Origin: Devosia ginsengisoli
GTDB lineage: Bacteria > Pseudomonadota > Alphaproteobacteria > Rhizobiales > Devosiaceae
NCBI RefSeq assembly: GCF_024707105.1
Contig: NZ_JANQAJ010000011.1
Span: 195,488-259,487 of the forward strand
DNA length: 64,000 nucleotides
Reading direction: 5' to 3'
Each line of letters opens with the position of its first letter. The stretch's first letter is position 1. A program made the translations under genes and the position numbers. Shown piece after piece: positions 6,712-34,859 of the stretch. The notes beneath the pieces were generated by a model. The model made no database searches and was not told where the DNA came from. It saw only the letters and a list, made by a program, of their open reading frames with translations.

Positions 6712-6722
6712 CAGTATACCAT
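6712..6722. promoter_or_regulatory. candidate GntR/FadR-type operator cAGTATACCAt upstream of the tctC paralogue
   Basis: GTATAC core at 6714..6719 in the intergenic region about 126 bp upstream of ATG 6588. Member of a motif family found at 8 intergenic sites of the island. Confidence 0.5.
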
Positions 6723-6729
6723 AACTCAA

Positions 6730-7920
6730 TCAAGCGGCGCCGATGGCGCCTTTATCGCGCAGTCGGTCGATTTCGGCGGGCGCAAGGCCGAGCTCGGCGA
6801 GGACCTGGCGCGTGTGCTGCCCGATCTCGGCCGGGTAGGGCGATGTCACTTTGCCGGGCGTGACGCTGAGCTTGGGCGTTGCGGCAAGCGTGCGCATTGT
6901 TTCACCATCGGGAAACGACACCGTCTCGATGGCATTGCGCGCCCTGACCTGCGCGTGGGCAACGACCTGGTCATAAGTGTTGATCGGACCGCAGATCAGG
7001 TCATTGGCTTCACACAATTGGAGCCATTCCGCGCTGGTGCGTCGTGAGAGCACCTCTTCAATGATATGTTTCAGGGCCTTCTGGTTACCCTGGCGGACTT
7101 TGCGGTCGACGAAGCGCGGATCGGTTTCCAGTTCGGGCAGGCCGAGGACGTTGCGGCAGAAGGCACTCCAGCGGGTGGGGCTATAGGCGGCCAGCATGAT
7201 ATGGCCGTCGCTGGTCCGATAGGCCTCGTTGGGCGTGGCATAGGGCGCGCGGCTGCCGGTGCGGCGGGGGAGTACCCCGGACTGAAGATAGCGGGTCATC
7301 GACGATTTCTGGATCACGAGAGCAGCCTCGAGCAGGCTGACATCGACGTGCTGGCCCATGCCGTGTTTTTCGCGCGCCAACAAGGCCAGCAGGATGCCCT
7401 GTGCCGCAAGAAAGCCTGCCGCCATATCAGCCAGGGGGAAGGGCGTCTTGATCGGCTCGGCATCCTCATCTTCGCTGCCGAACACGCTCATGATGCCCGA
7501 TACCGCCTGGATGATGCCGTCGACGCCCGGCTTGTCCTTCCATGGACCATCCTGGCCATAGGCGCTCACCGAGCAATAGACCAGGCGTGGATGGGCCTGC
7601 TTCAGCGTCGCATATCCCAGTCCCAGTCGGTCCATCACGCCAGGCCGGAAGCTTTCCATCACCACATCGGCACGCGCGATCAGCTTGCGCGCCAGCGCGA
7701 GACCGTCGCTCGACTTCAGGTTGATGGCGATGCCTTGTTTGTTGCGGTTGAACTCGCGCGTGCCGAGCCCGGGAGTCGTGCGCGACCAATCGCCGGTGGG
7801 TGGTTCCACCTTGATGACCTCGGCGCCGAAATCGGCGAGGGACGCGGTGGCGAATGGCGCGGCCGCGCCCATGCCGAAGCAAACGATCCTGATGCCGTCC
7901 AAAGCTGCCAGACCCTGCAT
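6730..7920 (-). CDS. family III (CaiB/BaiF) CoA-transferase, paralogue 1
   Basis: 396 aa. IRIVCFGMGAAAPFATASLADFGAEVIKVEPP and ESFRPGVMDRLGLGY are typical family strings. Confidence 0.88.
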   Translation of the reverse strand: MQGLAALDGIRIVCFGMGAAAPFATASLADFGAEVIKVEPPTGDWSRTTPGLGTREFNRNKQGIAINLKSSDGLALARKLIARADVVMESFRPGVMDRLGLGYATLKQAHPRLVYCSVSAYGQDGPWKDKPGVDGIIQAVSGIMSVFGSEDEDAEPIKTPFPLADMAAGFLAAQGILLALLAREKHGMGQHVDVSLLEAALVIQKSSMTRYLQSGVLPRRTGSRAPYATPNEAYRTSDGHIMLAAYSPTRWSAFCRNVLGLPELETDPRFVDRKVRQGNQKALKHIIEEVLSRRTSAEWLQLCEANDLICGPINTYDQVVAHAQVRARNAIETVSFPDGETMRTLAATPKLSVTPGKVTSPYPAEIGQHTRQVLAELGLAPAEIDRLRDKGAIGAA

Positions 7921-7959
7921 TCGGAACTCCTGTGGTTGGCCGCCGGCGCTGCGCGACGA

Positions 7960-9630
7960 CTACATGCGCGGATAGACCGGACCTTCGCCGCCCTGCGGCG
8001 GCACCCAGCGGATATTCTGGTTGGGATCCTTGATGTCGCAGGTCTTGCAGTGGACGCAGTTCTGCGCGTTGATGACGAAGCGCGGATTGCCATCGGCTTC
8101 GGTCTGCCATTCATAGACTGCTGCCGGGCAATAGCGGGCCGATGGGCCTTGAAAGACCTCCAGTTCGCTCTGCTGCTGCAATGCCGGATCGAGCACCTTC
8201 AGGTGGATCGGCTGGTCTTCCTCGTGGTTTGTGTTGGACAGGAAAACCGAGGACAGCCGGTCGAAGGTCAGTACGCCGTCCGGTTTGTCATATTGGATCG
8301 GCTGGTGTCGCGCCGCCGGATCGAGCGCCGCGTGGTCGGGGCCGCTGTGTCCGACGGTGCCGAAGGGCGACCATTTGAACAGGGTGTTGCACCACATATC
8401 CAGCCCACCCAGCGCAATGCCGAGATAGGTCCCGAACCGCGACCAGAGCGGCTTGACGTTGCGGACCCGCCAGAGATCCTGACCGATGGCGCTGTCGCGC
8501 CAGCTATCCTCAAAAGCGCTGATTTCGTCGCCGGCACGACCGGCGGCAATGGCTGCCGCGACATGTTCGGCGGCCAGCATGCCCGAGCGGGATGCATTGT
8601 GAAAACCCTTGATGCGTGGAACGTTGACGAGCCCCGCCGCACAACCCAGCAGCAGGCCGCCCGGAAAACTCAGGCGCGGCACCGATTGCCAGCCGCCTTC
8701 ACTGATCGCCCTGGCGCCATAGCCGATCCGCTTGCCGCCCGCAAAAATCGGCGCAATCGCCTTGTGCGTCTTGAAGCGCTGAAACTCCTCGAACGGCGAA
8801 AGGTAGGGATTGGAGTAGTTGAGGTGCACGACCAGCCCCACCGCCACCAGGTTATCGGGCAGGTGATAGAGGAACGATCCGCCACCAGTGCCCGCACCAA
8901 GCGGCCAGCCGAAGGAATGGTGCACCAGGCCCTGGCGGTGCTGCTCGGGCTTTACCTCCCAGAGCTCCTTGATGCCCAGGCCGTATTTTGGCGCGTCGCG
9001 GCCTTTTCGCAGCTCGAACCGCTCGATGATGCGCTCGGAAAGCGATCCGCGAACACCCTCGGCCATCAGCACATATTTGCCGAGCAGCTTCATGCCGCGG
9101 GCAAAGCCGGGGCCGGGTGTGCCGTCGCGGGAAATCCCCATATCGCCCGTAGCGACGCCGCTTACCGCGCCATTCCGGTCATAGATGACTTCGCTGGCGG
9201 CAAAGCCGGGATAGATTTCGACACCCAGCGCCTCGGCTTTCTCACCCAGCCAGCGGCAGAGATCACCCAGCGAGACGATGAGGTTGCCGTGATTGCTCAT
9301 CAGCGGCGGCATCAGGATGTTGGGAACGGGCAGGCGACCGTTGCGGCTGAGGATGTCGAACCTGTCGCTGGTAACCTCGGTCATCAGGGGCAGGTCGCCG
9401 TCCCGCCAGCCGGGCAGGAGTTCATCGAGACTGGAAGGATCGATTACGGCTCCGGACAGGATGTGGGCACCCACGGCCGCGCCCTTTTCGAGTACGACCA
9501 CGGACAGGTCGGCATCGAGCTGCTTGAGCCGGATTGCAGCAGCCAGGCCAGCGGGGCCGGCGCCGACGATGACCACATCGAAATCCATGCTCTCGCGGTC
9601 GTCCGCCATGCCCTCGTCGCTCACTGCCAT
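7960..9630 (-). CDS. electron-transfer flavoprotein:ubiquinone oxidoreductase (ETF-QO)
   Basis: ORF 7960..9711; start moved to MAVSDEG (ATG 9630, RBS TGGAGA). FAD fold FDVVIVGAGPAGLAAAIRL. C-terminal 4Fe-4S region NAQNCVHCKTCDIKDP. Confidence 0.92.
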   Translation of the reverse strand: MAVSDEGMADDRESMDFDVVIVGAGPAGLAAAIRLKQLDADLSVVVLEKGAAVGAHILSGAVIDPSSLDELLPGWRDGDLPLMTEVTSDRFDILSRNGRLPVPNILMPPLMSNHGNLIVSLGDLCRWLGEKAEALGVEIYPGFAASEVIYDRNGAVSGVATGDMGISRDGTPGPGFARGMKLLGKYVLMAEGVRGSLSERIIERFELRKGRDAPKYGLGIKELWEVKPEQHRQGLVHHSFGWPLGAGTGGGSFLYHLPDNLVAVGLVVHLNYSNPYLSPFEEFQRFKTHKAIAPIFAGGKRIGYGARAISEGGWQSVPRLSFPGGLLLGCAAGLVNVPRIKGFHNASRSGMLAAEHVAAAIAAGRAGDEISAFEDSWRDSAIGQDLWRVRNVKPLWSRFGTYLGIALGGLDMWCNTLFKWSPFGTVGHSGPDHAALDPAARHQPIQYDKPDGVLTFDRLSSVFLSNTNHEEDQPIHLKVLDPALQQQSELEVFQGPSARYCPAAVYEWQTEADGNPRFVINAQNCVHCKTCDIKDPNQNIRWVPPQGGEGPVYPRM

Positions 9631-9673: not shown

Positions 9674-9869
9674 ACGGAGAACGTAAAGGCGAAACGGGTG
9701 TTCCATTGCACTCCGTGACCTACCGGGCGAGCCGGATTTCCACGTTTTTTGCCGTACAGCGAGCGACCGGTGACCGTTACCGCACTTCCGACTGGCCCCA
9801 GTCCATGCTACCGCTTGCCCCGTATTGCGGCGCGACCGCTTCCGATGACACCGTTTCGAGGGACCTCCA

Positions 9870-10565
9870 ATGGCGCGACAACCCGTCATAAAACGTACCC
9901 AGGCCGACGGCATGCCGCTGGCGCAACGCGCCTACGATGCCGTGCGCCAGGCGATCGAGAGTGGCGAACTTTCTCCCGGCGATCGAGTGTCGGAATACCG
10001 CATTGCCGACTGGCTCAAGATCAGCCGCACGCCGGCCCGCGAGGGGCTGCAGCGCCTCGAGGCGGAAGGCCTGCTATCCTATCGGGCACGCCGCGGCCTA
10101 GTCGTGGCGACGATCGACGAGGACGCGCTCAAGGAGCTTTTCCTGGCCCGTGAGGTGTTGGAAAGTGCTCTTGCCGAGCAGGCCGCGCAGAACGGCTCAG
10201 GCCCGGAACTCAGCGCCATCATGCGGCATTGCGAGCTGGAGTCGGGCCTCGTCGGGGACCGCGACAAGATGTATGAACACAACAGGGCGTTCCACGAACT
10301 GATCCGGCGCGCGGGCCATAATCGCTATCTCGCCAAGTTCAGCATGGGGCTGGACGATGTCGTGGCGGCCGATCGGCGCGGTTCTTCGCTGATCGATCCG
10401 GATCGCCAGGTCGCCGTGGTGGAAGAACACCGGAAGCTGGCCCAGGCAATTGCCGAACGCGACGTGGCCGCGGCGGGACGTGCCGCGGGCAATCATATCA
10501 AGGCCGCTTTTGCCGCGCGCCTCAAGGTCAGTGCTGCTCGCCAGCGTGAGACCGAAGCCAACTAA
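9870..10565 (+). CDS. GntR-family transcriptional regulator with FCD (FadR C-terminal) domain
   Basis: 231 aa. N-terminal wHTH LSPGDRVSEYRIADWLKISRTPAREGLQRLEAEGLL. Helical C-terminal domain with H-rich ligand site (HNRAFHELIRRAGHNRYL). RBS GAGGGA. Confidence 0.9.
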   Translation: MARQPVIKRTQADGMPLAQRAYDAVRQAIESGELSPGDRVSEYRIADWLKISRTPAREGLQRLEAEGLLSYRARRGLVVATIDEDALKELFLAREVLESALAEQAAQNGSGPELSAIMRHCELESGLVGDRDKMYEHNRAFHELIRRAGHNRYLAKFSMGLDDVVAADRRGSSLIDPDRQVAVVEEHRKLAQAIAERDVAAAGRAAGNHIKAAFAARLKVSAARQRETEAN

Positions 10566-10657
10566 CTCCTGTCTTCATGCCATTGCCGCTTGTTGACCAG
10601 CCACCCGCGCCATCAAAGCACGGGTGGCCGTGCAGGGCTTGTCACGTCTCTTCGTAA

Positions 10658-10730: not shown

Positions 10731-11654
10731 ATGGAGCTTCCGGACAAGATCGTCGAGGGAAAGGTTGTCCTGGTGACGGGGGCCGGGCGCGGCATCGGCA
10801 AGGAAATCGCTCGCATGATGGCGCGGCAGGGCGCCAAGGTCGTGGTCAACGACCTGGGTGTCGAAGTCGGCGGAACGGGCGCGAATGAAAGCGTCGCCGA
10901 ACAGGCCGCAGCCGAGATTCGCGCCGAAGGCGGCGAGGCCGTCGCAAATGCCGACAGCGTCTCCGACTGGGACGGCGCGCATCGCATGGTTCAGACCGCA
11001 ATCGACGCGTTCGGCCGCATCGACTGCGTGGTCAACAATGCGGCGATCCTGCGCGACACCATCTTTCACAAGATGGAAAAGGCCGACTGGGATTTGTCGG
11101 TCGGCGTCATCCTCACGGGCAGCTTCTATGTCAGCAGGGCGGCCGCAGCGCATTTCCGCAAGCAGGAATCGGGCGCTTTCGTCCATATCAGCTCCACGTC
11201 GGGCCTCATTGGCGGCGTCGGGCAGGCCAATTACGGCGCAGCCAAGATCGGCCTGCAAGGGCTGTCAAAGGCCATCGCGCTGGACATGAAGCGTTTCAAC
11301 GTGCGCTCCAATGTGGTGGCGCCCTCGGCCTTCACCCGCATGACCGAGTCCATTCCGACCGAAACCGAAGAGCAGAAGCAGCGCGCCGCCAACCGGCGGA
11401 CGATCGCGCCGGAAAAGAACGCTCCCATTGTGGTCTACCTGGCCAGTGACGCCGCCAGCCATGTGACCGGGCAGGTCTTCTATACACGTGACAACGAACT
11501 GTTCCTGTTCAACCAGATGCGCCCGATCCGGCATGCGCATACCGCCGAAGGCTGGACCCCGCAGGCCATTGCCCAGCACGTCATGCCCGTCTTCGAGCCG
11601 GCTTTCATGCCGCTCGATCGCACGCGTGACGTGTTCACGTCGTATCTGCCGTGA
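10731..11654 (+). CDS. SDR-family oxidoreductase, probable 3-hydroxyacyl-CoA dehydrogenase (MFE-2 dehydrogenase-domain-like)
   Basis: ORF 10590..11654; start moved to MELPDKIVEGKVVLVTGAGRGIGKE (ATG 10731, RBS AAGGGGAGAG). Catalytic YGAAK. Long C-terminal extension. Confidence 0.85.
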   Translation: MELPDKIVEGKVVLVTGAGRGIGKEIARMMARQGAKVVVNDLGVEVGGTGANESVAEQAAAEIRAEGGEAVANADSVSDWDGAHRMVQTAIDAFGRIDCVVNNAAILRDTIFHKMEKADWDLSVGVILTGSFYVSRAAAAHFRKQESGAFVHISSTSGLIGGVGQANYGAAKIGLQGLSKAIALDMKRFNVRSNVVAPSAFTRMTESIPTETEEQKQRAANRRTIAPEKNAPIVVYLASDAASHVTGQVFYTRDNELFLFNQMRPIRHAHTAEGWTPQAIAQHVMPVFEPAFMPLDRTRDVFTSYLP

Positions 11655-13807
11655 GTCGCGCCATGAACCAGGTTGCCGCGGAAACCATGGGTAACGAGAC
11701 GCGTGCCGTCGATCTGTCGCGGCTGTTCGATCCGCGCGCCATCGCGGTGGTTGGCGCGACAGAGTCGAGCCGGGCCGTCGGCGGCCAGCCGATGCACTAT
11801 CTCACCACCTATGGCTATGAAGGCGAGGTATTTCCGGTCAATCCGAACCGAGAGACGGTGCTTGGCCGCAAGTGCTATCCCACGCTGGCGGATATACCAT
11901 CCGGTTGTGATGTCGTGCTGATCGCGATCGCGGCGCGCCTGGTGCCCGACGTGATCCGGCAAGCCGGCGCCAGAGGCATTCCTTTTGCGGTCATCCTCTC
12001 CTCGGGCTTCCGCGAGGCCGGGGACGAGGGCAAGGCCATCGAGGCCGAACTGATCGCCGCCATCAAGGAAACCGGAATTCGCGCCGTCGGTCCCAATTGC
12101 ATGGGCGTGCTCAATATTCCAAAGAGGGTTCATAATGGTTTCGGGCAGGGCTTCGGCGTGAAGGACTATTCCGTCGGACCTGTGGCCATGGCCACGCAGA
12201 GCGGCGGCTATGGCTTTACGCTGGTGCGCAATGCCAGCCGCGCCGGGACCGGGTTCAACTATATCGCCTCGGTCGGCAACAGCGTCGACCTCAACGTTCT
12301 CGATTTCATCGACTATTTCCTCGACTGCGACGACGTGAAGGTGGTCACCGCCTTTATCGAGGGCGTTTCGGATGGTCGGCGCCTGCTGGAGCTGGGGCGC
12401 AAGGCGCTCGAGCGCAACAAGCCGATCCTCGTCTGGAAGGCAGGCAATACCGCGGCTGGTCAGAAGGCCGCCGCATCGCACACGGCCAGCCTGGCCAGCA
12501 GCTACGCGCTCTATCAGGCGGCATTCCGTCAAGGCGGCTATGTCGAGGTTGACGATTACGAAGATCTCGTCGACCTGGCCAAGGCCTTTCTCGCCGGAAC
12601 GCTGCCGCGCGGCGACCGCGTCGGGCTGGTGTCCGGTTCTGGCGGGGCAGGGGTCATTGCCTCGGATCGCTTCATGCAGGCCGGCCTGCAATTGCCCGAA
12701 TTTTCCGCAACCACCAAATCCGTATTGCGCGACATGCTGCCGCCGCTCGCCGGAACCGGCAATCCGGTGGACATTTCGGGGCAGAACACCAAGGACGGCA
12801 AGAGCCTGTCCAATGCTGCCGCCGAAGCGGTGCTCGCCGACGAAAATATCGACATGGTGATGGTGCGCTCCGGCCAGACGACCGGCAGTATCGAAGCGGC
12901 GCAGTCCATCATCGATATTGCGCGCGAGGCCGGCAAGCCGGTGCTCGTCGCGACGGTCGCGGAGGATCACCTGCCTGCCAAGGCGCTGTTGGACGCTGCC
13001 GGTCTGCCGTGGTTCCTGACGGTCGGCCGGGCAGCGACTGCCGCGCGGGCGCTGGCCGATTTCTCGATGCGCCAGCAGAAATGGGCCGCTCGCCCTCGGG
13101 CGATCCAGAGGCCAGTGGGCCGTGCCGCGCTGTCATTCCCTGACGGGGAAACGTTCCTCAGCGAGCGGGCGTCGCGCGATGTGCTGGCCCAATATGGCAT
13201 CCCGCTTGTCCGCCAGGAATTCGTCCCGGCCGACGCGGTGGACAGGTTCAGTTTGCAGGACCTGGCTTTCCCGGTCGTGGTGAAGGTCAATTCACCCGAT
13301 ATTCCGCACAAGAGCGAGGCGGGAGCGATCCGCGTCAATCTCACGACTCTGGAAGCGGTACGGTCGGCGGCGCGGGAGGTGATCGCGGCGGCGCGAGCCT
13401 ATGTTCCTGACGCTCGTATCGACGGGGTGCTGGTGCAGGAAATGGCCAAGGGAACCGAACTGCTGCTCGGAGCGGCCGACGATGCCTGTTTCGGGCCGAT
13501 CGTCCTGTTTGGCCTGGGCGGTATTTTCGCCGAGGTCATGGCCGACGTCGTCTACAGGTTTGCCCCCTTCGACAAAATGTCGGCGCAAGACATGCTCACC
13601 GAGATCAAGGGCGTGAAGCTGCTTCAGGGCTATCGGGGGCAGGCGGTGGCCGACCTCGATGCGCTGGCCAATATCGTGATGCGGCTGGGCTGGCTCATGA
13701 GCGACTATAGGGAAGCCATAGAGAGCATTGATATCAATCCAATTTTCGTAAATGGCGGCACCATTCTTGCCGCGGATGCCCTCATCGCGCTCAAGGGCAG
13801 GGGGTAG
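11651..13807 (+). CDS. ADP-forming acyl-CoA synthetase (acetate--CoA ligase family; CoA-binding + ligase-CoA + ATP-grasp domains fused)
   Basis: 718 aa. PRAIAVVGAT CoA-binding start, GPNCMGV, C-terminal ATP-grasp region (FPVVVKVNSPDIPHKSEAGAIRVNL). GTGA overlap with the SDR stop. Confidence 0.85.
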   Translation: MSRAMNQVAAETMGNETRAVDLSRLFDPRAIAVVGATESSRAVGGQPMHYLTTYGYEGEVFPVNPNRETVLGRKCYPTLADIPSGCDVVLIAIAARLVPDVIRQAGARGIPFAVILSSGFREAGDEGKAIEAELIAAIKETGIRAVGPNCMGVLNIPKRVHNGFGQGFGVKDYSVGPVAMATQSGGYGFTLVRNASRAGTGFNYIASVGNSVDLNVLDFIDYFLDCDDVKVVTAFIEGVSDGRRLLELGRKALERNKPILVWKAGNTAAGQKAAASHTASLASSYALYQAAFRQGGYVEVDDYEDLVDLAKAFLAGTLPRGDRVGLVSGSGGAGVIASDRFMQAGLQLPEFSATTKSVLRDMLPPLAGTGNPVDISGQNTKDGKSLSNAAAEAVLADENIDMVMVRSGQTTGSIEAAQSIIDIAREAGKPVLVATVAEDHLPAKALLDAAGLPWFLTVGRAATAARALADFSMRQQKWAARPRAIQRPVGRAALSFPDGETFLSERASRDVLAQYGIPLVRQEFVPADAVDRFSLQDLAFPVVVKVNSPDIPHKSEAGAIRVNLTTLEAVRSAAREVIAAARAYVPDARIDGVLVQEMAKGTELLLGAADDACFGPIVLFGLGGIFAEVMADVVYRFAPFDKMSAQDMLTEIKGVKLLQGYRGQAVADLDALANIVMRLGWLMSDYREAIESIDINPIFVNGGTILAADALIALKGRG

Positions 13808-13810
13808 TCG

Positions 13811-14668
13811 ATGCCGCTCGATTACGAGGCGCTCAAGGCCTATCGCATTCCACAGACCGAGATGGCGCTGACCAAGCGGGATACGATGCTCTACGCCCTG
13901 GGAATCGGACTGGGGGCGGATCCCACCGACGAGCGCCAGCTTCGTTTCGTCTACGAGAAGAACCTGCTGGCCGTTCCAACCATGGCAACCCTGATCGCAG
14001 CGCCCCATGCCTGGATCAGGAAGGCCAATGTCGGTTCCAGCGGCAAGAGCGTTCACGCCGGTATTAGCTTCCGGCTGCACCGCCCTATCCCGGTCGAAGG
14101 CAGCTTCCGCAGCGAAAACAGTGTCGATGAAGTGGTCGACAAGGGCGAGGGCAAGGCCGCGCTTGTGACGACACGGCGGCGGGTGTTCTCAGAGCAGGAT
14201 GACGCTCTGATCTTCGAGATTCTATCGACCAGCATGCAACGTGGCGATGGTGGTTTCGGCGGTCCCTCGACGTCGTCGGCGCCGGCCCACGAGGTTCCAG
14301 GCTCGCCGCCGGACATGGTCGTGGACATGCCCACTCTGCCGCAGCAGGGGCTGATCTACCGCTTGAGCGGGGACTACAACCCGCTGCACGCCGATCCGGA
14401 GCATGCCCGATCGAACGGCTTTCCGCGCCCGATCCTGCACGGCCTCTGCACCTATGGCATTGCCGGACATGCGCTGCTGCGCGCCCTATGCGACTACGAA
14501 CCGGCGCGGCTTGTGGCGATGAGCGCACGGTTTTCCAGGCCGGTCTATCCCGGCGACACACTTCAGATCCAGATATGGCAGCGCGGCGATACGGCCCATT
14601 TCCGCTGCCTTGTGCCAGCCCGCGACAACGAGGTCGTGCTCGATTTCGGACATGTCGAACTCGCCTGA
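13811..14668 (+). CDS. MaoC-like (R)-specific enoyl-CoA hydratase, double hot-dog (MFE-2 hydratase-2-like)
   Basis: 285 aa. NPLHADPEHARSNGFPRPILHGLCTYG hydratase-2 motif in the C-terminal half. Confidence 0.85.
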   Translation: MPLDYEALKAYRIPQTEMALTKRDTMLYALGIGLGADPTDERQLRFVYEKNLLAVPTMATLIAAPHAWIRKANVGSSGKSVHAGISFRLHRPIPVEGSFRSENSVDEVVDKGEGKAALVTTRRRVFSEQDDALIFEILSTSMQRGDGGFGGPSTSSAPAHEVPGSPPDMVVDMPTLPQQGLIYRLSGDYNPLHADPEHARSNGFPRPILHGLCTYGIAGHALLRALCDYEPARLVAMSARFSRPVYPGDTLQIQIWQRGDTAHFRCLVPARDNEVVLDFGHVELA

Positions 14669-14699
14669 CGGCGGAACAGAACTACGGAGGAGCAGAACG

Positions 14700-16079: not shown

Positions 16080-16094
16080 CCTACGGAGAATAGT

Positions 16095-16997: not shown

Positions 16998-17017
16998 CAG
17001 ATCAGGAGACTATCGGC

Positions 17018-18418: not shown

Positions 18419-18424
18419 TATGCT

Positions 18425-19460: not shown

Positions 19461-19518
19461 TGAGGTCTTTCATATCTGCACGATGCGTGAACCGGTAGTT
19501 CGCCAGAGTCTCAATAAA

Positions 19519-19722: not shown

Positions 19723-19739
19723 TAATCCAGGATTTAGGG

Positions 19740-21254: not shown

Positions 21255-21284
21255 TCGGACGACCATGCCAGCAGGACGAGGACC

Positions 21285-25012: not shown

Positions 25013-25043
25013 CGGTCCGGGCCTGTTATCCGAGGTTTTGCAA

Positions 25044-25793: not shown

Positions 25794-25815
25794 ACGCCAG
25801 ACAGGAGTAGAGACA

Positions 25816-26748: not shown

Positions 26749-27149
26749 GCCCCGGTGGGACGAAACATGGGGACCGGCGGCGTGCCATCGCCGCTGGTCT
26801 GGCCGAAGACGAGCTCCACCTGCTGGCCGATATGCAGCCGGTCGAGATCGCATTCCACGATATTGGTCAGCATGCGCGGCCCTTCAGCGAGTTCGACATA
26901 GGCCACTGCATAGGGCGGCTTGGCACGGCGCATGACGGTCCAGCTATAGATCGTACCGGCACCACTCGCCTCGACCCATTCGGTTTTCTCGCTCCAGCAG
27001 AAAGGGCACATTGTGCGCGGAAACCAGTGGGTTTCGCCACAGGATGTGCAGCGCTTGATGAGGAAACGCCCTTGCGCCGCGGCGTCCCAAAAGGGCTGCG
27101 ATTCGGCGTCCGGCTGCGGCGCGGGAACGGTTCGTCCGGTTGGCTGCAT
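26745..27149 (-). CDS. DUF35 (Zn-ribbon + OB-fold) acyl-CoA-associated protein, partner of the adjacent thiolase-like enzyme
   Basis: ORF 26745..27431; start moved to [12 protein letters not shown] (ATG 27149). Zn ribbon [18 protein letters not shown] followed by an OB-fold region. 5 bp downstream of the thiolase gene. Confidence 0.8.
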
Positions 27150-27154
27150 GTCGA

Positions 27155-28321
27155 TTACTCCCGTTCCAGAATGAGGGTGCCGCTGCCATGGCGCGTAGCG
27201 AGCTGGCCGCCCGTGCCATGCACCAGGGCCAGGTCGCAATTGGCGACCTGCACCGCAGGGTGGGCTTCGCCGCGCAGTTGCCGCACGGCCTCGATGATCT
27301 TGGTGATACCGCCCCGGTTCGCCGGGTGGTTGTTGCATAATCCGCCGCCGTCGGTGTTGAACGGCAGGCGGCCGACACCGGAGATGAGATTGCCATCGGC
27401 AACGAATGCGCCGCCCCTGCCCTTGGCGCAAAAGCCGAGGTCTTCCAGTTGGAGCAGCACCGTTATGGTGAAGCTGTCATAGAGCGACACATATTTGATG
27501 TCGGTGACGGCTACGCCGGCCTCGGCAAAGGCGGCCGGTCCGGTTCGGACCGCACCGGTATAGCTGAGATCGATCTTCCCGCCGGCCTGATGCTTGGTGG
27601 TTTCGCCCGCGCCAAGCACGCGAACCAGCGGCCGATTGAGCTTTCTGGCAATCTCGGGTCGCGCCACGATGACGGCGCCACCGCCATCGCTGATGACGCA
27701 GCAGTCCAGGCGGTGCAGCGGATCCGCAACCATGGGCGAACTGACGACGTCTTCCACAGTGACGACATCGCGTAGAACGGCATTGGGATTGTGTTGCGCG
27801 TGATGAGAGGCGGCAACCTTAATCCAGGCCAGTTGCTCACTGGTGGTGCCGAACTCGTACATGTGCCGCTGGGCGGCCAGCGCGTAGCTCACGGCTGTCG
27901 GAATGGCATAGGGGTATTCCCATTGCACATCCGGCGCGGCGACATGGCGGATGCGTGGCGTGGTGCCGGTGCGAACATCGTCGGCCTTCGGCCTGCCGGC
28001 AAGGCTGATCAGTGCGACATTGCACTTGCCCAGCGCGATGGCCTCCGCCGCATGAGCCACCTGCACGATCGGCGAGACCCCGCCGATATCGGTCGAGTCG
28101 ACATGGCGCACCTCGAGGTTGAGGTAGTTCAGCAATGACTGCAGTCCGCCCGGCGCATCGCCGGAGCAGAAATAGCCGTCGATATCTGCCTTGCTCAGCC
28201 CCGCATCGGCGATAGCGCCGGCGGCCACCTCGGCATGAAGCTGTGCATGGGACTTGTCGGGAGCAAAGCGAGTCGGGTGCTCGAAGGCTCCGACGATGTA
28301 AGCCGCGCCGCGGATTGTCAT
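27155..28321 (-). CDS. SCP-x/nonspecific lipid-transfer-protein-type thiolase-like enzyme
   Basis: 388 aa thiolase fold (AYIVGAFEHPTRFAP...; C-terminal ALVHGTGGQLATRHGSGTLILE). Paired with DUF35, as in BbsAB and Ltp2-type systems. Confidence 0.8.
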   Translation of the reverse strand: MTIRGAAYIVGAFEHPTRFAPDKSHAQLHAEVAAGAIADAGLSKADIDGYFCSGDAPGGLQSLLNYLNLEVRHVDSTDIGGVSPIVQVAHAAEAIALGKCNVALISLAGRPKADDVRTGTTPRIRHVAAPDVQWEYPYAIPTAVSYALAAQRHMYEFGTTSEQLAWIKVAASHHAQHNPNAVLRDVVTVEDVVSSPMVADPLHRLDCCVISDGGGAVIVARPEIARKLNRPLVRVLGAGETTKHQAGGKIDLSYTGAVRTGPAAFAEAGVAVTDIKYVSLYDSFTITVLLQLEDLGFCAKGRGGAFVADGNLISGVGRLPFNTDGGGLCNNHPANRGGITKIIEAVRQLRGEAHPAVQVANCDLALVHGTGGQLATRHGSGTLILERE

Positions 28322-28506: not shown

Positions 28507-29793
28507 ATGGCAGCCAGTTTCCAGTTCGGCAAAATCCTGCAAACACTGGCGCATCGCAATTTCGGGGTCTATGTCGCGGGCAATGTCGGCTCGCTCATCG
28601 GCACCTGGATGCAGCGAATCGCGGCAGGCTGGTTCACCTGGGAGCTGACGCAATCGGCCACCTGGCTCGGGCTCATAGCTTTTGCGGATCTCTTTCCTGC
28701 CGTGGTGATTGCGCCCTTTGCCGGAGTGGCGGCAGACCGGTGGGATCGTCTGAAAATGATGAAGCTGGCCCAGATACTGGGCTTCCTGATCGGCGGTGCG
28801 CTGGCATTGCTGTTCTTCGTCGGTCAGGTGACGGTCTGGACATTGCTGATCGTGACCCTGATGCTCGGCACCGTCGATGCCTTCGTCCAGCCCTTCCGGC
28901 TGGCCTTCGTGTCGGCGCTGGTGCCTAGATCTGACCTCACGACCGCCGTGGCCATCAAGTCCATCACGTTCAACCTGGCGCGGTTCGTCGGTCCGGCCAT
29001 AGCCGGCATCGTCATTGCCACTGTTGGCGTCGGTTGGGCCTTCGCGGCAAATGCCCTGTCGTTTCTGGTGCTGCTCGGTGCGTTGTTGCTGGTGCGCCTG
29101 GCGCCTGTCGTGCGGATTGCGCCGGTCAAGAAAGTATCCGTCATCGCCGATGCCATCGAGGGCGTTCGGCATGCGGTATCGACGCCGGGCATCGGCATCG
29201 TGCTAGGCCTGCTCGGGGTGACATGCCTGGCGGGTCGTCCGGTTGTCGAACTGCTTCCCGGCTGGGCAGGGGAGATATTCTCGGGTGATGCCAGCGATCT
29301 GGCAGCCCTCACCTCTGCGGTCGGCATCGGCGCAGTGTTCGGTGGACTGTGGCTCGCCGGCAGGCCGAGCATTGTCGGACTGGTCAGAGCCTATCTGTTT
29401 TGCTGCCTGGGCATGGCGCTGTCTCTGCTGGCCTTTTCGTTGTCGTTCCACACACTGGTCGCTCTGCCGACAATGGTGGTTTCCGGCTTCTTCCTCGTGG
29501 CGTCGGCTATCTGCGCCCAGACTCTGGTACAGGTGAATGTCGAGGACGGTTTGCGCGGCCGGGTACTCAGCGTCTACGCGATGATCCTGCGTGGCGGGCC
29601 GGCAGTGGGTGCGCTGATCATGGGTTATTTGGCCGACTTTATCGGGCTGCGATTGCCCCTGGTCGGCGGCTGCATCATTCTGCTGGTTGCCACCGGGCTG
29701 GTATTCCTGCGCCGGCGCGAAATCGAGGAGGTGCTTGAGAGCCGGTTCAAGCTGCCCGAGGCGCCAACGGTAGCGGGCGACGGCAGGGATTGA
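28507..29793 (+). CDS. MFS transporter (MFS_3/EntS-like architecture)
   Basis: ORF 28486..29793; probable start MAASFQFGKIL (ATG 28507). About 12 hydrophobic segments. Loop motif PFAGVAADRWDR. Confidence 0.8.
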   Translation: MAASFQFGKILQTLAHRNFGVYVAGNVGSLIGTWMQRIAAGWFTWELTQSATWLGLIAFADLFPAVVIAPFAGVAADRWDRLKMMKLAQILGFLIGGALALLFFVGQVTVWTLLIVTLMLGTVDAFVQPFRLAFVSALVPRSDLTTAVAIKSITFNLARFVGPAIAGIVIATVGVGWAFAANALSFLVLLGALLLVRLAPVVRIAPVKKVSVIADAIEGVRHAVSTPGIGIVLGLLGVTCLAGRPVVELLPGWAGEIFSGDASDLAALTSAVGIGAVFGGLWLAGRPSIVGLVRAYLFCCLGMALSLLAFSLSFHTLVALPTMVVSGFFLVASAICAQTLVQVNVEDGLRGRVLSVYAMILRGGPAVGALIMGYLADFIGLRLPLVGGCIILLVATGLVFLRRREIEEVLESRFKLPEAPTVAGDGRD

Positions 29794-29811
29794 ACAGGCC
29801 TGGCCACTGGC

Positions 29812-30741
29812 TTACCTCGCCATATTGCCGCCGAGCCACTGCAGATTATCCACCAGTTCGCTGCAGCATTCGCGGATCAGGTCCATCATCTGGCGCAGGT
29901 CCTGGTCAATCTCCCGTTCCGCGGATACGGCGATGACGCGGGTGGAATGCAGGCCCTGAATGGGCACGGCTGCCAGTTCCTTACGCTGGAGCTCGGAACG
30001 CGCCATGGCGGCGACATGCACGGTGGGGCCGACGTTTTCCTTGACCAGCGCCTTGCAGGCGCCTGCCGTATTGGCCTCGGCCGCTACGACCAATGGAATA
30101 CCAGCGGCGGCAAAGGAATCTTCGATGGTGGAGCGGATGCCCGAGGATTGTGCGCCGCCAACCACCAGGGGGACGCCACGCAGGTCCTCGAGCCTGAGCG
30201 ACTCGATACCCGTGAACCGTTCGTCATCGGATCGGTGAATGAGGCAGAGCGGCTCGCGCATGAGCGGCAGAATCCGCAAACCCTGCAGCGAGCGGGGCAG
30301 ATTCATCACGGCCACGTCGACTTTGCCATCGCGCAACAGATCGGCCCTGGCGGGCATCAGCATGGATATGAATTCACAGCGAAGCTGAGGATAGCGGCGA
30401 GCAGCGAGCCGAGACAGCGGATAGGCCAGGATTTCGGCGGTTCCAGGCGAAACGCCGATCTTCATGCTGCCGGTCATCGGCTCGAGGCCGCCCGTAGCCA
30501 TGCGGGTCACGGCGATGACCTCGTCCAGAATGTGCTCGGCTTTTGCCTGCAGCGTATACGCCACGGGCGTCAGCGACACGCCATGTGCATGGCGCACGAA
30601 CAGGTCGACGCCGAGTTCTTCCTCGAGCTTCTTGATCTGCCGGCTCAGAGCCGGTTGGGCAACATGCAGAACATTTGCCGCGCGGCCATAGGTGCCTTCG
30701 CGAGCCACGGTGAGGAAGTAGCGAAGCTGCCTGAGTTCCAA
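29812..30741 (-). CDS. LysR-family transcriptional regulator
   Basis: 309 aa. N-terminal HTH MELRQLRYFLTVAREGTYGRAANVLHVAQPALSRQIKKLEEELGVDLFVR. Divergent from the PrpD-HMGL operon. Confidence 0.93.
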   Translation of the reverse strand: MELRQLRYFLTVAREGTYGRAANVLHVAQPALSRQIKKLEEELGVDLFVRHAHGVSLTPVAYTLQAKAEHILDEVIAVTRMATGGLEPMTGSMKIGVSPGTAEILAYPLSRLAARRYPQLRCEFISMLMPARADLLRDGKVDVAVMNLPRSLQGLRILPLMREPLCLIHRSDDERFTGIESLRLEDLRGVPLVVGGAQSSGIRSTIEDSFAAAGIPLVVAAEANTAGACKALVKENVGPTVHVAAMARSELQRKELAAVPIQGLHSTRVIAVSAEREIDQDLRQMMDLIRECCSELVDNLQWLGGNMAR

Positions 30742-30832
30742 AACATTCTCCTCCTGCAGGCCGGTCGGGAGGGCCGGCCATCGACAATTTTTGATCCGGT
30801 CTTGCCGCCGGATTGGTTCTCTCGCTCAAATA

Positions 30833-30850
30833 GAGTGCAATAGTATACCA
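30833..30850. promoter_or_regulatory. candidate operator GAGTGC-aata-GTATAC-CA in the lysR / prpD-4 divergent region
   Basis: Read directly. Followed by the near-palindrome ATGCATTGCAT (30850..30860), which could be a LysR-type site. Confidence 0.55.
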
Positions 30851-30911
30851 TGCATTGCATTTCGAGGTAGCTGCATTTATAGCATCTGAAACTGAGGTAG
30901 AGGATGACGCC

Positions 30912-32276
30912 ATGCAGACGGTGGATTTAGCCAGGTTCGTGGTCGAGACACCCGATGATGCCGTTCCGCTGGAGGCGTTGCAACGGGCCCGCGACGCCGT
31001 GATCGATACAATCGGCTGCGCCATTGCCGGCACGGTCGAGCAACCCGCACGGATTGCCCGGCGCTATGTTCAGTCGATCAAGGCTGCACCCGATACAGTG
31101 GTATGGGGAAGCGTGCTACGCACGGCCCCTGCCGATGCGGCATTCGTCAACGCAATCAGCGGCCATGCCCTCGATTTCGACGACAGCTTACCCAGCCTGC
31201 GCGGCCATCCCAGCGTACCCTTGTGTGCTGCTGGCCTCGCTGCCGCCCCGCAGGAGATGTCGGGCAGGGCGTTTCTCGCGGCCTTCGTGCTGGGGCTGGA
31301 AGTGGCGGGCAAGCTGGGTCGAGCACTCGGACATGGTCACTACATGCGCGGCTGGCATATAACCGCCACGGTCGGCACATTCTCTGCGGCCTGCATGACC
31401 GGTCGCCTGATGTCGCTGGGCGAAGGACAGTTGCGCAATGCTCTGGGGGTAGCGGCGGCAGAGACGGCGGGCCTTGTCCGCAATTTCGGCACCATGGCCA
31501 AGTCTTTCCAGGCAGGGCATGCAGCCCGATCCGGCTATATGGCGTCCTGGCTGGCGCGGGAGGGCTTTACCGGTGACGATGACATACTCGATCGCCCCGG
31601 CGGTCTCATCGCGGCCTATGGGGATGAGCACTCGACGCTGGATGTCCCGCCATTCGCAAACCCCTGGGAAATCTTCGAGCCTGGCATCTATGTCAAGCGC
31701 TGGCCCTGCTGCTACGGCAACCACCGTGGCTTGGCTGGTGTGTTCGAACTGGTCGGCAAGCATGGCATCGAGGCCGCCGACATCACCGAGATCAATGTTG
31801 GCTTCTTGCCTGACGCGGACAAGGCGCTGATCCATCGGAATCCGCAAACCGGACTGGAAGCCAAGTTCAGCATCGAATATTGCGCCGCCGCCGCGGTGAT
31901 TGACGGGCGGGTGACGCTCGACTCCTTCGCGGAGCAAGCGGTGCATCGTCCGCAGATTCGCGCGCTGATGGAAAAGGTCAGTCGCGTGCCGATGCCGGGG
32001 CAGGGGTCTTTCTCGGGGGTGGTGGGGTATACCGACGTCGAAATTGTTACCCGTAGTGGGCGCTTCTCCACGCGCATCGACCATACGCCCGGCTCGCCGG
32101 AGGCACCGATGACGGCGAGCGACCGGCGCGACAAGTTTCTCGGCTGCACGCAGGGTATTCTTGGCACGGATCGTGCCGAGCGCCTGCTCTCCGCGCTGGA
32201 AGGCCTGATCGAGGCGCCTGATCTTCGGCAGATCGTTGAACTCACCATGCCCGCCCAGGAAGGCGGTGCGGCATGA
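30912..32276 (+). CDS. MmgE/PrpD-family protein, paralogue 4
   Basis: ORF 30855..32276; probable start MQTVDLARFV (ATG 30912). VIDTIGCAIAG, HALDFDD, GWHITATVG, AKSFQAGHAARSG. Confidence 0.85.
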   Translation: MQTVDLARFVVETPDDAVPLEALQRARDAVIDTIGCAIAGTVEQPARIARRYVQSIKAAPDTVVWGSVLRTAPADAAFVNAISGHALDFDDSLPSLRGHPSVPLCAAGLAAAPQEMSGRAFLAAFVLGLEVAGKLGRALGHGHYMRGWHITATVGTFSAACMTGRLMSLGEGQLRNALGVAAAETAGLVRNFGTMAKSFQAGHAARSGYMASWLAREGFTGDDDILDRPGGLIAAYGDEHSTLDVPPFANPWEIFEPGIYVKRWPCCYGNHRGLAGVFELVGKHGIEAADITEINVGFLPDADKALIHRNPQTGLEAKFSIEYCAAAAVIDGRVTLDSFAEQAVHRPQIRALMEKVSRVPMPGQGSFSGVVGYTDVEIVTRSGRFSTRIDHTPGSPEAPMTASDRRDKFLGCTQGILGTDRAERLLSALEGLIEAPDLRQIVELTMPAQEGGAA

Positions 32277-33217
32277 ATGAGCCCGATGTTGTGTTGTGCG
32301 AGTGCTTCGCGCGCGACGGGCTGCAGCACGAGGCCGAGTTCGTCGCCACGCCGGACAAGATTGCGCTGATCGACGCCTTTACCGGCACCGGCTTCAAGCG
32401 CATCGAGGCGACCAGCTATAGCCACCCTGAGCGCGTTCCGGCCTTTCGCGATGCTTCCGACGTTCTTGCCGGCATCACCCACGGTGAAGGCGTCTACTAC
32501 AAGGCCACATGCCCCAATCTGCGGGCTGTGCAGCGGGCGCTCGGCGATCTTGATGCGGGCAGGGGCGCCAATGAGTTGAGCCTGCTGGTATCGGCCACGG
32601 AAGGACATACCCAGCGCAATCTGCGGACCGATCGGGAAACACAGTGGCGGAATGTCTCGGAGATGGCGGCAGCCGCGCGCGGCCATGTGCGGCTCGTGGG
32701 TGTCGTCTCGGTTGCCTTCGGTTGCCCCTTTGACGGCTATGTCGACCCAGGCCGGGTTGTAGAGAATGTCGCGCGTTTTGCCGATCTTGGCGCCGACCTG
32801 GTGACGATCGGCGATACGATCGGCACGGCGACCCCCGCCAGCGTCAGGCAGGTGTTCAAGCGGCTGCTTGCCGAGGTCCCGCAAACCATCCCAGTAGCCC
32901 ATTTCCACGATACGCGTGGCACGGGAATCGCCAACTGCATTGCTGCGCTGGACGCGGGCTGTACGCATTTCGACAGCGCCTTCGGCGGCGTTGGAGGGCA
33001 TCCGGCGCAGATCGAATATGGCGGCGGCTATACCGGAAACGTGGCCACCGAAGATCTGGTCAACCTCCTCGAGGAACTGGGTGTGTCCACCGGGCTTGAT
33101 CTGGATGGGGTGGAGGCCGCCTCGCGGCTCTGCGAGCAAATCCTGGGCCGACAGCTCAACAGCATGGTCGCCAGAGCGGGATTTGGCCTCAAGACGAGGG
33201 AGCGCATGCATGCCTGA
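32273..33217 (+). CDS. hydroxymethylglutaryl-CoA lyase-family (DRE-TIM) acyl-CoA C-C lyase
   Basis: 314 aa. ECFARDGLQHE, IGDTIGTATP, HFHDTRGTGIAN. ATGA overlap with the upstream gene. Confidence 0.88.
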   Translation: MNEPDVVLCECFARDGLQHEAEFVATPDKIALIDAFTGTGFKRIEATSYSHPERVPAFRDASDVLAGITHGEGVYYKATCPNLRAVQRALGDLDAGRGANELSLLVSATEGHTQRNLRTDRETQWRNVSEMAAAARGHVRLVGVVSVAFGCPFDGYVDPGRVVENVARFADLGADLVTIGDTIGTATPASVRQVFKRLLAEVPQTIPVAHFHDTRGTGIANCIAALDAGCTHFDSAFGGVGGHPAQIEYGGGYTGNVATEDLVNLLEELGVSTGLDLDGVEAASRLCEQILGRQLNSMVARAGFGLKTRERMHA

Positions 33218-33965
33218 TCGGACAACCGATGTGCTGATAATCGAGGATCACGGTCCGGTACGCGTCTTGCGCATGAACCGGCCGGACAAGCTCAACGCAC
33301 TGGATACCGCGCTGACCGTCGCGCTTCGCGACGCCATGCTGGAGGCGGGTGAAGACGATGGTGTCAGGGCCCTGGTGCTCACCGGGAACGGCCGTGCCTT
33401 CTGTGCGGGGGCCGATACCGGCGAGTTCAAGGATCTGCGGCCGGAAAACCAGGACCTCATTCACAAGCGCGCCGACCTGACTTGCGCCGTTCACACCCTG
33501 CTGCGCTCCATTTCGAAACCGATCATTTCGGCAGTTCGTGGGGCTGCGGTTGGCGGCGGGGCAGGGCTGGCGATCGGCTGTGACATGATGGTCGCCGGCG
33601 AAGACATTAAGTTTGGATATCCCGAACTCAAGCACGATCTCGTGCCGGCATTGGTGATGACCAATATGGTCCGCCATATCGGGCTCAAGCTGGCATTCGA
33701 GATGGTCGCTACCGGGCGGCTGCTCAGTGCGGAAGAGTTGTCGCGCGAGGGACTCGTGAACCGCGTGGTGGCGCCCGAAGCAGTCGTCGACACCGCCATG
33801 GAACTGGCCGAGGCATGCGCCCGGCCCGGTCGCATGGCGATGGCCGCGGCCAAGACCCTGTTCCATCGCGTGGGCGAACTGCCCTTCGAGGCGGGAATGG
33901 CCGCCGGTCGTGACATCAATGCGCTCATGCGCGGCTTTCCCAAACAGGCGGGAGAGGGAAAATGA
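33210..33965 (+). CDS. enoyl-CoA hydratase/isomerase (crotonase) family protein 1
   Basis: ORF 32916..33965; start moved to MPDRTTDVLIIEDHGPVRVLRMNRPDKLNALD (ATG 33210, overlaps the HMGL stop). FCAGADTGEF, GGGAGLAIGCD. Confidence 0.88.
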   Translation: MPDRTTDVLIIEDHGPVRVLRMNRPDKLNALDTALTVALRDAMLEAGEDDGVRALVLTGNGRAFCAGADTGEFKDLRPENQDLIHKRADLTCAVHTLLRSISKPIISAVRGAAVGGGAGLAIGCDMMVAGEDIKFGYPELKHDLVPALVMTNMVRHIGLKLAFEMVATGRLLSAEELSREGLVNRVVAPEAVVDTAMELAEACARPGRMAMAAAKTLFHRVGELPFEAGMAAGRDINALMRGFPKQAGEGK

Positions 33966-34726
33966 CCGACGAAGCCGTGCTTGTTCTTGAGCGAGAAGGC
34001 CCAATCGCGTGGGTGCGGCTCAATCGGCCGCGGCAGCGTAACGCGGTCAATCTCCAGCTTTGTCTCGACTTGCGGGCCGCCTTCGCGGAACTGGACGGCG
34101 ACGATGACATTCGTGTTGTCCTGGTGGAAGGCGCTGGCCCGGTCTTTTGCTCCGGAGCCGACCTCAAGGAGCGCCAGGGCAAGGACGCCGAATGGGTGCG
34201 GCAGAGGCGGCTTGCGAGCTTTGCTGCCTATGACGCCATCGAACGCTGCTCCAAGCCGGTGGTCGCGCTCGTGCATAATGGGGTCATCGGTTCGGGTGGC
34301 GAGATCGCCATGGCATGCGACTTCATCATCGCCACCTCGGACACGTTCTTCAACTTTCCCGAGACCAAGTGGGGGACTGTGGGCGCGACCCAGCGCCTGC
34401 AGCGCGCGATCGGCAAGCGAACGGCCAAGGAATTGCTCTTCACGGGCCGATCCATGCCGGCCGACGAAGCCCGTCTGCTGGGTCTGGTGTCTCGAATCGT
34501 AGAGCCATCTGCGCTTCGGGAGGCCGGTGAGCAGACGGCGCGTCAGATCGCCGAAGCGCCCATGCTGGCAGTCCGTCTGACCAAGCAGTCAATTGACCTG
34601 GGCGGACGTACCGATCAAGACAGTGGTATACGAATTGAGCTGGCTGCGATCGAGCATAACCTGGCTGTGGGGGATTGGCAGGCCGGTATCGACAAATTTG
34701 CCGAACGCTCTCCAAAAAAACCATAG
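33962..34726 (+). CDS. enoyl-CoA hydratase/isomerase (crotonase) family protein 2
   Basis: 254 aa. VRLNRPRQRNAVN, FCSGADLKE, GSGGEIAMACD. ATGA overlap. Confidence 0.88.
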   Translation: MTDEAVLVLEREGPIAWVRLNRPRQRNAVNLQLCLDLRAAFAELDGDDDIRVVLVEGAGPVFCSGADLKERQGKDAEWVRQRRLASFAAYDAIERCSKPVVALVHNGVIGSGGEIAMACDFIIATSDTFFNFPETKWGTVGATQRLQRAIGKRTAKELLFTGRSMPADEARLLGLVSRIVEPSALREAGEQTARQIAEAPMLAVRLTKQSIDLGGRTDQDSGIRIELAAIEHNLAVGDWQAGIDKFAERSPKKP

Positions 34727-34848
34727 ATTCCTTGTGTTTTGACGTCATATCAATTCGGTATGACCGCCATAGCACTTCGGTGTTGGACGGTGTTTAATCC
34801 TCCTACTATCGTCTTCAAAAGATAGAACTGAGCAAGACAGCGGTCGTC

Positions 34849-34859
34849 TGGTACACCAT
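34849..34859. promoter_or_regulatory. degenerate operator-like site TGGTACACCAT upstream of the ACAD gene
   Basis: One mismatch in the GTATAC core and no flanking GAATTC. 36 bp upstream of ATG 34895. A full GTATAC (34626..34631, TGGTATACGAATTG) lies inside the end of the upstream gene. Confidence 0.3.

Follow-up and report, generated by a model that had tools for sequence, protein, structure and literature searches.

Are the genes of a large catabolic island in Devosia ginsengisoli under the control of one regulator, and if so, of which one? The question is raised by a stretch of 64,000 nucleotides of contig NZ_JANQAJ010000011.1 (the window, here always the whole stretch that was analysed), in which an island of about 3.7-44.3 kb is bordered by housekeeping genes, on the left a sigma-54-type activator gene, hflX and mazG and on the right MAPEG and further genes. 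A first-pass annotation had read a GTATAC-centred element in front of nearly every transcription unit of the island as a FadR-type GntR operator, and the island as one regulon. Enrichment of the motif, its recovery by a matrix from other genomes, its travel with the same gene families and the shape of the operator all agree with that reading. The motif is bipartite, is concentrated in the intergenic DNA of the island, is conserved at orthologous loci and occurs together with a gene for an FCD-type GntR regulator (9870-10565). It is probably the operator of this regulator, which would act as an effector-released repressor. Through it, some 30 genes that are uncharacterised in their physiology are linked as a single co-regulated set, which recurs in several alphaproteobacterial genera.

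The GTATAC motif in the window

Exactly 11 copies of GTATAC are present in the window (6714, 9665, 10660, 19529, 19714, 28359, 28449, 30554, 30843, 32027 and 34626), and they are confined to 6.7-34.6 kb. Dinucleotide-preserving shuffles, 100 of which served as the null, gave an expectation of 1.88 +/- 1.15 copies with a maximum of 5, and none of them gave 11. The gene map was built from GC3-rich open reading frames combined with Pfam and NCBIfam matches, and the start codons were refined from the spacers. On this map 8 of the 11 copies fall in intergenic DNA, which makes up 6.3% of the window (binomial P < 1e-6), at distances from the nearest start codon that range from 21 nt (TcuA) up to 145 nt (an MBL-fold hydrolase gene). 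The three coding copies lie inside lysR (30554), prpD-4 (32027) and an ECH gene (34626). Those at 30554 and 32027 have poor flanks and no exact GTATAC in the matching genes of other genera, and were put down to chance.

A comparison with the first-pass annotation shows that its count of at least 11 copies was exact and its positions the same, that its eight intergenic sites are all intergenic on the refined map, and that the perfect ATGGTATACCAT it had reported at 19711-19722 is present. Its estimate of 20-130 bp between site and start codon was nearly right, although the MBL hydrolase site lies beyond that range. It had also described the motif as a tGGTATACCa-type palindrome. The palindrome is there, its consensus A-T-G-G-T-A-T-A-C-C-A-T giving TGGT-AT-ACCA and a GT-to-AC spacing of 2 nt, but the motif is longer and includes a second hexamer, G(A/C)A(T/C)TC, 4 nt after GTATAC.

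With the sites oriented for best fit, the full motif reads ATGGTATAC-N4-G(A/C)A(T/C)TC. The second box is exactly GAATTC at four of the eight window sites and GTATTC, GTACTC, GCACTC or GGATAT at the rest; a set of 16 sites drawn from four genomes shows no variation at G10 and A12 and has C15 in all but one. This box, tkGmATTC, is a degenerate copy of the core TGGTATAC centred exactly 10 bp from it, and it therefore lies on the same face of the helix. Past about 22 nt no similarity was found among the sites, so that they do not represent a dispersed repeat element. A 22-nt bipartite matrix trained solely on sites from Terrihabitans soli and two JGI contigs (L004 and L007) recovered all eight window sites with 15.1-33.1 bits, against a best hit of 9.9 bits in the reversed window used as null. 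The putative operator sites and their scores with this matrix are as follows.

6702-6723, minus strand: site 1, TATGGTATACTGTTGGATATGG, upstream of a TctC-like gene (5605-6588) and a TPP enzyme gene (3680-5398); 15.1 bits
9653-9674, minus strand: site 2, TATGGTATACTATTGAATTCCG, 35 nt before the ETF-QO start (9630) and 200 nt before gntR; 32.2 bits
10656-10677, plus strand: site 3, AATGGTATACAACGGAATTCTA, 66 nt before the SDR operon (10731-18418); 33.1 bits
19517-19538, minus strand: site 4, CAAGGTATACCAATGTATTCTT, 145 nt before the MBL-fold hydrolase gene (18425-19384); 17.9 bits
19702-19723, minus strand: site 5, which holds the perfect palindrome (19711-19722), 21 nt before the TcuA start (19740); 22.2 bits
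28355-28376, plus strand: site 6, AATTGTATACTAGCGAATTCCT, 38 nt before the thiolase-DUF35 operon; 20.3 bits
28445-28466, plus strand: site 7, GATGGTATACAGTAGAATTCAT, 53 nt before the MFS transporter start (28507); 23.4 bits
30831-30852, minus strand: site 8, CATGGTATACTATTGCACTCTA, in the divergent lysR/prpD-4 spacer; 31.0 bits

Site 1 has the weakest second box (GGATAT), and its GTATAC is 126 nt from the TctC-like ATG at 6588 and 72 nt from a GTG at 6642. The GTATAC of site 8 stands 102 nt from the lysR start and 64 nt from the prpD-4 start. An extra weak hit at 9694-9715, facing gntR (11.5 bits), is not kept in three related Devosia contigs (L011-L013) and was not counted. One of the coding copies deserves a line of its own.

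34622-34635, no strand assigned: candidate ninth site, intragenic, AGTGGTATACGAAT, in the 3' end of the ECH gene (33962-34726), about 270 nt upstream of the acyl-CoA dehydrogenase (ACAD) operon

With a core matrix, the copy at 34626 scores 13.9 bits against a null maximum of 12.1. Its codons, AGT GGT ATA CGA (S-G-I-R), have a within-family usage of 6%, 14%, 6% and 10%, and they are kept in Devosia (D. ginsengisoli included) and in Wenxinia; Silicimonas has N-G-I-R, written AAT GGT ATA CGT, and L007, which is without a site of this type, has GGC ATC CGG. The retention of rare codons across genera suggests selection at the DNA level, and GTATAC at 34626 can be regarded as a candidate intragenic operator. 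It is a better candidate than the degenerate copy TGGTACACCAT at 34849, which the first-pass annotation had placed before the ACAD operon. That sequence is present but unsupported as a site. It scores 12.5 bits with the core matrix, no better than noise (null maximum 12.1), and less than 5 bits with the bipartite matrix, it is absent from orthologous spacers, where it falls in a gap of the four-genome ECH-to-ACAD alignment, and it was rejected.

Conservation at orthologous loci

Orthologous loci were gathered through homologous GntR proteins and then through the contigs encoding them. A scan of genome contigs with the GntR protein gave two distant relatives (L001 and L002) of 25-33% identity, of no use for footprinting. 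Orthologues with 60-74% identity are encoded in T. soli (L003), Wenxinia marina (L005), Silicimonas algicola (L006) and the JGI contigs L004 and L007. In these five loci gntR adjoins the same gene families in shuffled order, namely TcuA, PrpD, ETF, ETF-QO, MFS, thiolase-DUF35 and the LysR-PrpD-HMGL-ECH group. GTATAC with ATGG/CCAT flanks is found in the matching spacers: between ETF-QO and gntR, between gntR and the next operon, before TcuA, before SDR, at two sites between thiolase and MFS, and at one site between lysR and prpD. The phylogenetic footprinting proposed in the first-pass annotation, once run, shows the motif tracking the same gene families in five other genomes in spite of the shuffled gene order. 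Over six loci together, 22 of 28 GTATAC copies are intergenic or at a called gene edge, intergenic DNA amounting to 9% (P ~2e-18), and the roughly 61 kb of non-island flank of these loci contain no copy at all.

Individual sites can be followed from locus to locus. The core of site 2 is kept in L011-L013, and T. soli has a site in the equivalent ETF-QO/gntR spacer; site 3 is invariant in L011-L013, with divergent flanks. Equivalents of site 5 precede the TcuA orthologues of L003 (14679) and L004 (10826). Sites 6 and 7 are both kept in a D. ginsengisoli comparison locus, the latter within a divergent spacer, and L005 and L006 carry paired sites in the spacer of site 6. Site 8 is the sole conserved block in the lysR/prpD spacer when five genomes are aligned, and the D. 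ginsengisoli comparison locus keeps it too. The DNA of this locus is 89% identical to the window over 21 kb (97% for the LysR protein) and that of L011-L013 about 86%; in all of them the sites are invariant or retain their core while the adjacent spacer diverges.

Sites of the GGTATAC(C/G) type are located near gntR orthologues of 55-74% identity in seven other loci. Among the orthologues with 55-61% identity are two that stand in unrelated gene contexts (L008 and L009) and have GTATAC with GG and/or CC flanks nearby, at 18361 upstream of tctC/tctB in L009 and at 9752 in L008, in a spacer common to gntR and a molybdopterin oxidoreductase gene. This suggests a GntR clade that keeps its operator while the targets change. 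P0111 has a TcuA/PrpD/TctC gene context.

The probable regulator, the class of operator and the alternatives

The only regulators among the island genes scanned against Pfam are the following two.

9870-10565, plus strand: gene of an FCD-type (FadR-subfamily) GntR regulator, the proposed binder (PF00392 and PF07729)
29812-30741, minus strand: gene of a LysR-type regulator (Pfam match)

The GntR protein matches the PF00392 winged helix-turn-helix over residues 17-79 (58.3 bits, cutoff 27) and the PF07729 FCD domain over residues 89-211 (77.6 bits, cutoff 24.3), so that the FCD-domain GntR gene called at 9870-10565 in the first-pass annotation is confirmed by Pfam. The solved structures nearest to it are GntR/FCD proteins. 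Among the His and Asp residues that could form the metal site of FCD domains, H137, H142, H150, H187, H209 and D130 do not vary in the sequences of ten orthologues.

Operators of the FadR subfamily follow the consensus NyGT-Nx-ACNy, with TKGT/ACMA boxes separated by 3 nt between GT and AC, or by 2 nt in some groups including UxuR, and many of these palindromes have a further box 7-12 nt away, according to the comparative genomics of Suvorova, Korostelev and Gelfand 2015 (PMC4494728). The island motif is a TKGT/ACMA-box palindrome with the 2-nt spacing of UxuR, its additional box is centred 10 nt off and thus within the range of the subfamily, and its sites stand upstream of co-localised operons, including the spacers that adjoin the regulator gene, at positions kept in orthologous loci. 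The same source gives predicted TTGGTATACCAA, TTGCATGCAA and ATGAATTCGT variants in other FadR-subfamily groups, including variants within one orthologous group, and these mirror the GTATAC, GCATGC and GAATTC variants of the island motif. Single or double sites in divergent spacers and a weaker box some 10 nt off the centre of the palindrome are likewise common to the island and to the FadR regulons described there. In contrast to the groups compared from it, the second box is unusually well conserved here, and the orthologous group of the island regulator was not met among them; the helix-turn-helix region differs from the published Bpet4349 group as judged by eye, without a computed alignment.

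UxuR and ExuR, the hexuronate repressors of E. coli, share with the island protein the GntR winged helix-turn-helix and FCD architecture. The E. coli UxuR operator is AAATTGGTATACCAATTT (PMC8092373); its core TGGTATACCA is identical to that of the island motif, with 2 nt between GT and AC. In both systems the sites lie within the promoters of catabolic operons, and the predicted logic of an effector-released repressor is alike. The island sites differ in their outer arms, A-T-G rather than AATT, and in having the extra phased second box; the island protein has no UxuR or ExuR match in NCBIfam, and its predicted targets are TcuA, PrpD, ACAD and ETF genes, not hexuronate genes. Its best NCBIfam matches, PhnR-like with 76 bits (cutoff 271) and NanR with 52 bits (cutoff 260), are both far below threshold. 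Judged from these features, the island system appears to work like a UxuR/ExuR-type FCD-GntR repressor with an accessory box, outside the UxuR, ExuR, NanR and PhnR orthologous groups.

Another FCD-type GntR protein with a GGTATA-containing unit, E. coli NanR, binds (GGTATA)3 with three dimers, and cooperative binding on phased repeats has been proposed for it (PMC8012715). The NanR operator consists of three direct repeats, whereas the island motif is a true palindrome with one degenerate copy at 10 bp, and none of the island sites shows three tandem GGTATA units without a palindromic partner. The hexamers of the NanR operator have a period of 8-9 bp. TcuR is the LysR-type regulator of the tricarballylate operon tcuABC of Salmonella. 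Like TcuR, the island system would control a TcuA-containing operon, but the island TcuA gene is preceded by a GntR-type palindrome, which belongs to another regulator family and another type of operator.

The co-occurrence of motif and gntR, together with the class of the motif, makes it likely that the GTATAC operator belongs to the island GntR protein. In the mechanism we propose, a GntR dimer would recognise the palindrome ATGGTATACCAT through TGGT and ACCA boxes whose GT and AC are 2 nt apart, and in the Devosia/Terrihabitans lineage the second copy, tkG(A/C)A(T/C)TC, 10 bp away, would probably recruit a second dimer cooperatively. At eight promoter regions, the sites are predicted to lie over or directly beside the leader or the -10/+1 region. 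That at 10660 overlaps a promoter-like TTGTCA-16-TATACA with an upstream TG, before the SDR operon, and that at 28359 overlaps a minus-strand promoter-like TTGTCG-18-TACAAT, before the thiolase gene; sites that overlap -10/+1 or lie close to the start are the standard layout of a repressor, acting by occlusion or as a roadblock. Unliganded GntR would repress some 30-40 kb of catabolic genes, including TcuA, the four PrpD/MmgE paralogues, PrpB, the ACADs, ETF and ETF-QO, the CoA-transferases, thiolase-DUF35 and the MFS and TctC-like uptake functions, and it would be released when a substrate or intermediate of the pathway binds to the FCD domain.

A far more specific picture can be drawn by joining a cooperative dimer-of-dimers (NanR-like in mode, UxuR-like in core), at least one intragenic operator maintained by rare codons in the ECH gene, and the switching on of an undescribed tricarboxylate or branched-dicarboxylate route of about 40 kb (TcuA, four PrpD/MmgE, PrpB, HMG-CoA-lyase-like, ECH, ACAD and private ETF/ETF-QO) conserved from Devosia to Rhodobacterales; that all of these parts hold together is rather doubtful. 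One regulator with one operator and one effector would nevertheless provide an experimental handle on what the island degrades. The regulatory biology itself is ordinary, as GTATAC-centred FadR-subfamily operators, target-adjacent regulators and accessory half-sites are all documented.

Several observations weigh against GntR as the protein that binds these sites. The assignment rests on co-occurrence, and a LysR orthologue also co-occurs with the motif in most loci, accompanying the island in Devosia, Wenxinia, Silicimonas, Corticibacterium and two JGI contigs. The best-conserved site sits in the divergent lysR/prpD spacer. SRTPAREG, the recognition helix, is shared unchanged by a paralogue of 48% identity, and at the locus of that paralogue (L014/L015) GTATAC is absent and a single relaxed TGT-N-ACA match occurs, so that the protein sequence does not explain the specificity. 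Some sites stand far from a start codon (126-145 nt), the second box is absent from the Rhodobacterales loci, and the motif counts cover the island loci and their flanks, with further sites possible elsewhere in the genomes. The presence of LysR, the position of the best-conserved site and the shared helix would suit an operator that is real but bound by another factor, either the island LysR or a regulator encoded elsewhere in the genome. We regard this as quite unlikely, given that the compact 12-bp TGGT-AT-ACCA palindrome has the shape of the FadR subfamily and not that of the interrupted T-N11-A dyad of LysR boxes. In addition, no LysR orthologue could be detected in T. soli, which does have GntR and four sites; the absence is not absolute, since it refers to the 8000 best word-sharing candidates scored. 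L008 and L009 have a GntR orthologue and no LysR among their called genes, yet they carry flanked GTATAC sites, and the empty non-island flanks argue against a global regulator.

The motif could also be a promoter element, namely an extended -10 (TGnTATACn) with a conserved initial transcribed region, perhaps served by a dedicated sigma factor. Indeed, ATGGTATAC(T/A) can be read as TGn-TATAC(T/A), TGGTATAC(T/A/C) resembles the extended -10 TGnTATAAT, the bipartite orientation faces the downstream gene at most sites, and promoter-like matches were seen at the SDR and thiolase sites. However, both arms, ATGG and CCAT, are conserved although a -10 element does not need them, and in the hexamer the C at position 5 is invariant while only four of the eight window sites have T at position 6. 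Moreover, the bipartite motif has opposite orientations relative to ETF-QO in Devosia and in T. soli, the two sites of the divergent thiolase/MFS spacer face the same way, no consistent -35 element was seen, and the Pfam scan of the island found no sigma factor gene. Since an operator placed over the -10 is the usual layout of a repressor, the promoter-like features fit a GntR operator as well, and the promoter explanation is very improbable. An origin in chance, base composition or a dispersed repeat (a REP or MITE fragment) with no regulatory role could be invoked because GTATAC is short and three of the 11 copies are coding, with poor flanks. It is effectively refuted by the shuffles and the intergenic bias, by the recovery of the sites with the matrix from other genomes, by the loss of similarity beyond 22 nt and by the keeping of sites at orthologous spacers in other genera.

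If the island GntR protein is indeed the binder, the question of its own control follows. The first-pass annotation had placed a site in the region upstream of gntR. Such a site exists in the spacer (site 2), but its distance from gntR is 200 nt and it borders directly on the ETF-QO start, and in L004 and L007 the region ahead of gntR lacks an exact GTATAC. Autoregulation is plausible but not general: in Devosia and T. soli it could act by way of the spacer that gntR shares, and in Rhodobacterales by way of co-transcription with thiolase-DUF35. Upstream of gntR in T. soli, at about 9950-9990, the sequence CCCGGTATGCCATTATGGTATGCAGG holds two near-core copies with GTATGC in place of GTATAC, which may be weak autoregulatory sites.

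Predicted units, a possible second regulatory layer and other features of the island

Two island proteins, TcuA and PrpB (methylisocitrate lyase), pass an NCBIfam equivalog cutoff. The island also encodes four PrpD/MmgE paralogues, an HMG-CoA-lyase-like enzyme, several ECH and ACAD enzymes, two family III CoA-transferases, an NDP-forming acyl-CoA synthetase, MaoC, SDR, thiolase-DUF35, ETF alpha and beta, ETF-QO, two TPP enzymes, an MFS transporter, TctA and two TctC-like paralogues. The Pfam and NCBIfam scans of the island genes revealed neither TcuB nor TcuC, and no description of this cluster was found in the literature on TcuA, MmgE and GntR together. The predicted regulated units, the first two assigned from Pfam and paralogue comparison, are listed below with their sites.

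3680-9630, minus strand: ETF-QO and family III CoA-transferase (6730-9630), and TctC-like and TPP enzyme (3680-6588); sites 1 and 2
within 10731-28321, plus strand: unit a, SDR, NDP-forming acyl-CoA synthetase, MaoC, PrpD, PrpB and PrpD; site 3
18425-19384, minus strand: unit b, MBL hydrolase; site 4
within 10731-28321, plus strand: unit c, TcuA, PrpD, double ACAD, ETF beta and ETF alpha; site 5
within 10731-28321, minus strand: unit d, thiolase-DUF35; site 6
28507-34726: MFS (plus strand), lysR (minus strand), and prpD-4 with HMG-CoA-lyase-like and two ECH genes (plus strand); sites 7 and 8

Read-through of transcription from the prpD-4 unit into the ACAD operon and on through the TctC-like, TctA and TPP genes up to 44298 is possible. 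The LysR protein probably acts locally, as a second regulator for the prpD-4/HMGL/ECH operon. Upstream of the ACAD operon, a 50-nt block, CATATCAATTCGGTATGACCGCCATAGCACTTCGGTGTTGGAC, at 34744-34795 of the ECH-to-ACAD spacer is kept in Devosia, L007, Wenxinia and Silicimonas. It contains CGGTATGACC and a palindrome with a spacing of 3 nt, GGT-ATG-ACC, and a promoter-like TTGGAC-17-CTATCG (34790-34818) comes after it. The window has a single exact copy of CGGTATGACC, and the block has no Rfam match. It may be the site of a second regulator of the ACAD operon, possibly LysR or another GntR.

LysR and this separate conserved element point to a second regulatory layer. On account of both, the first-pass proposal that one repressor defines the island genes as one pathway has to be divided: one regulon is supported, but the regulon alone does not prove one pathway. 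Co-regulation does support a functional link among the island genes.

Within unit c, a 778-amino acid open reading frame (22676-25012) carries two acyl-CoA dehydrogenase units in tandem directly upstream of the ETF beta/alpha pair. The position of this double ACAD beside a dedicated ETF pair, with ETF-QO elsewhere in the island, suggests a private electron-transfer chain. In the D. ginsengisoli comparison locus the TcuA and double-ACAD genes are split; both are intact in the window.

The two TctC-like paralogues (5605-6642 and 39322-40404) are 45% identical and secreted, and one of them adjoins TctA. With 19 bits, or no match at all, they stay under the Pfam TctC threshold of 27 bits, and they appear to form a divergent TctC-like solute-binding family.

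Rfam gave no match in the window at the gathering threshold. Just past the gntR stop, at 10590-10640, a GC-rich hairpin, CCACCCGCG...CGGGTGG, is kept in L011-L013 and has no T-run; it may be a terminator, or an insulator ahead of the SDR operon promoter. Finally, the gene of an Fe-dependent alcohol dehydrogenase (38001-39217) is frameshifted near 38376-38381. The D. ginsengisoli orthologue is intact (405 amino acids) and shares 98-99% identity on both sides of the frameshift, which reflects either a pseudogene or a sequencing error.

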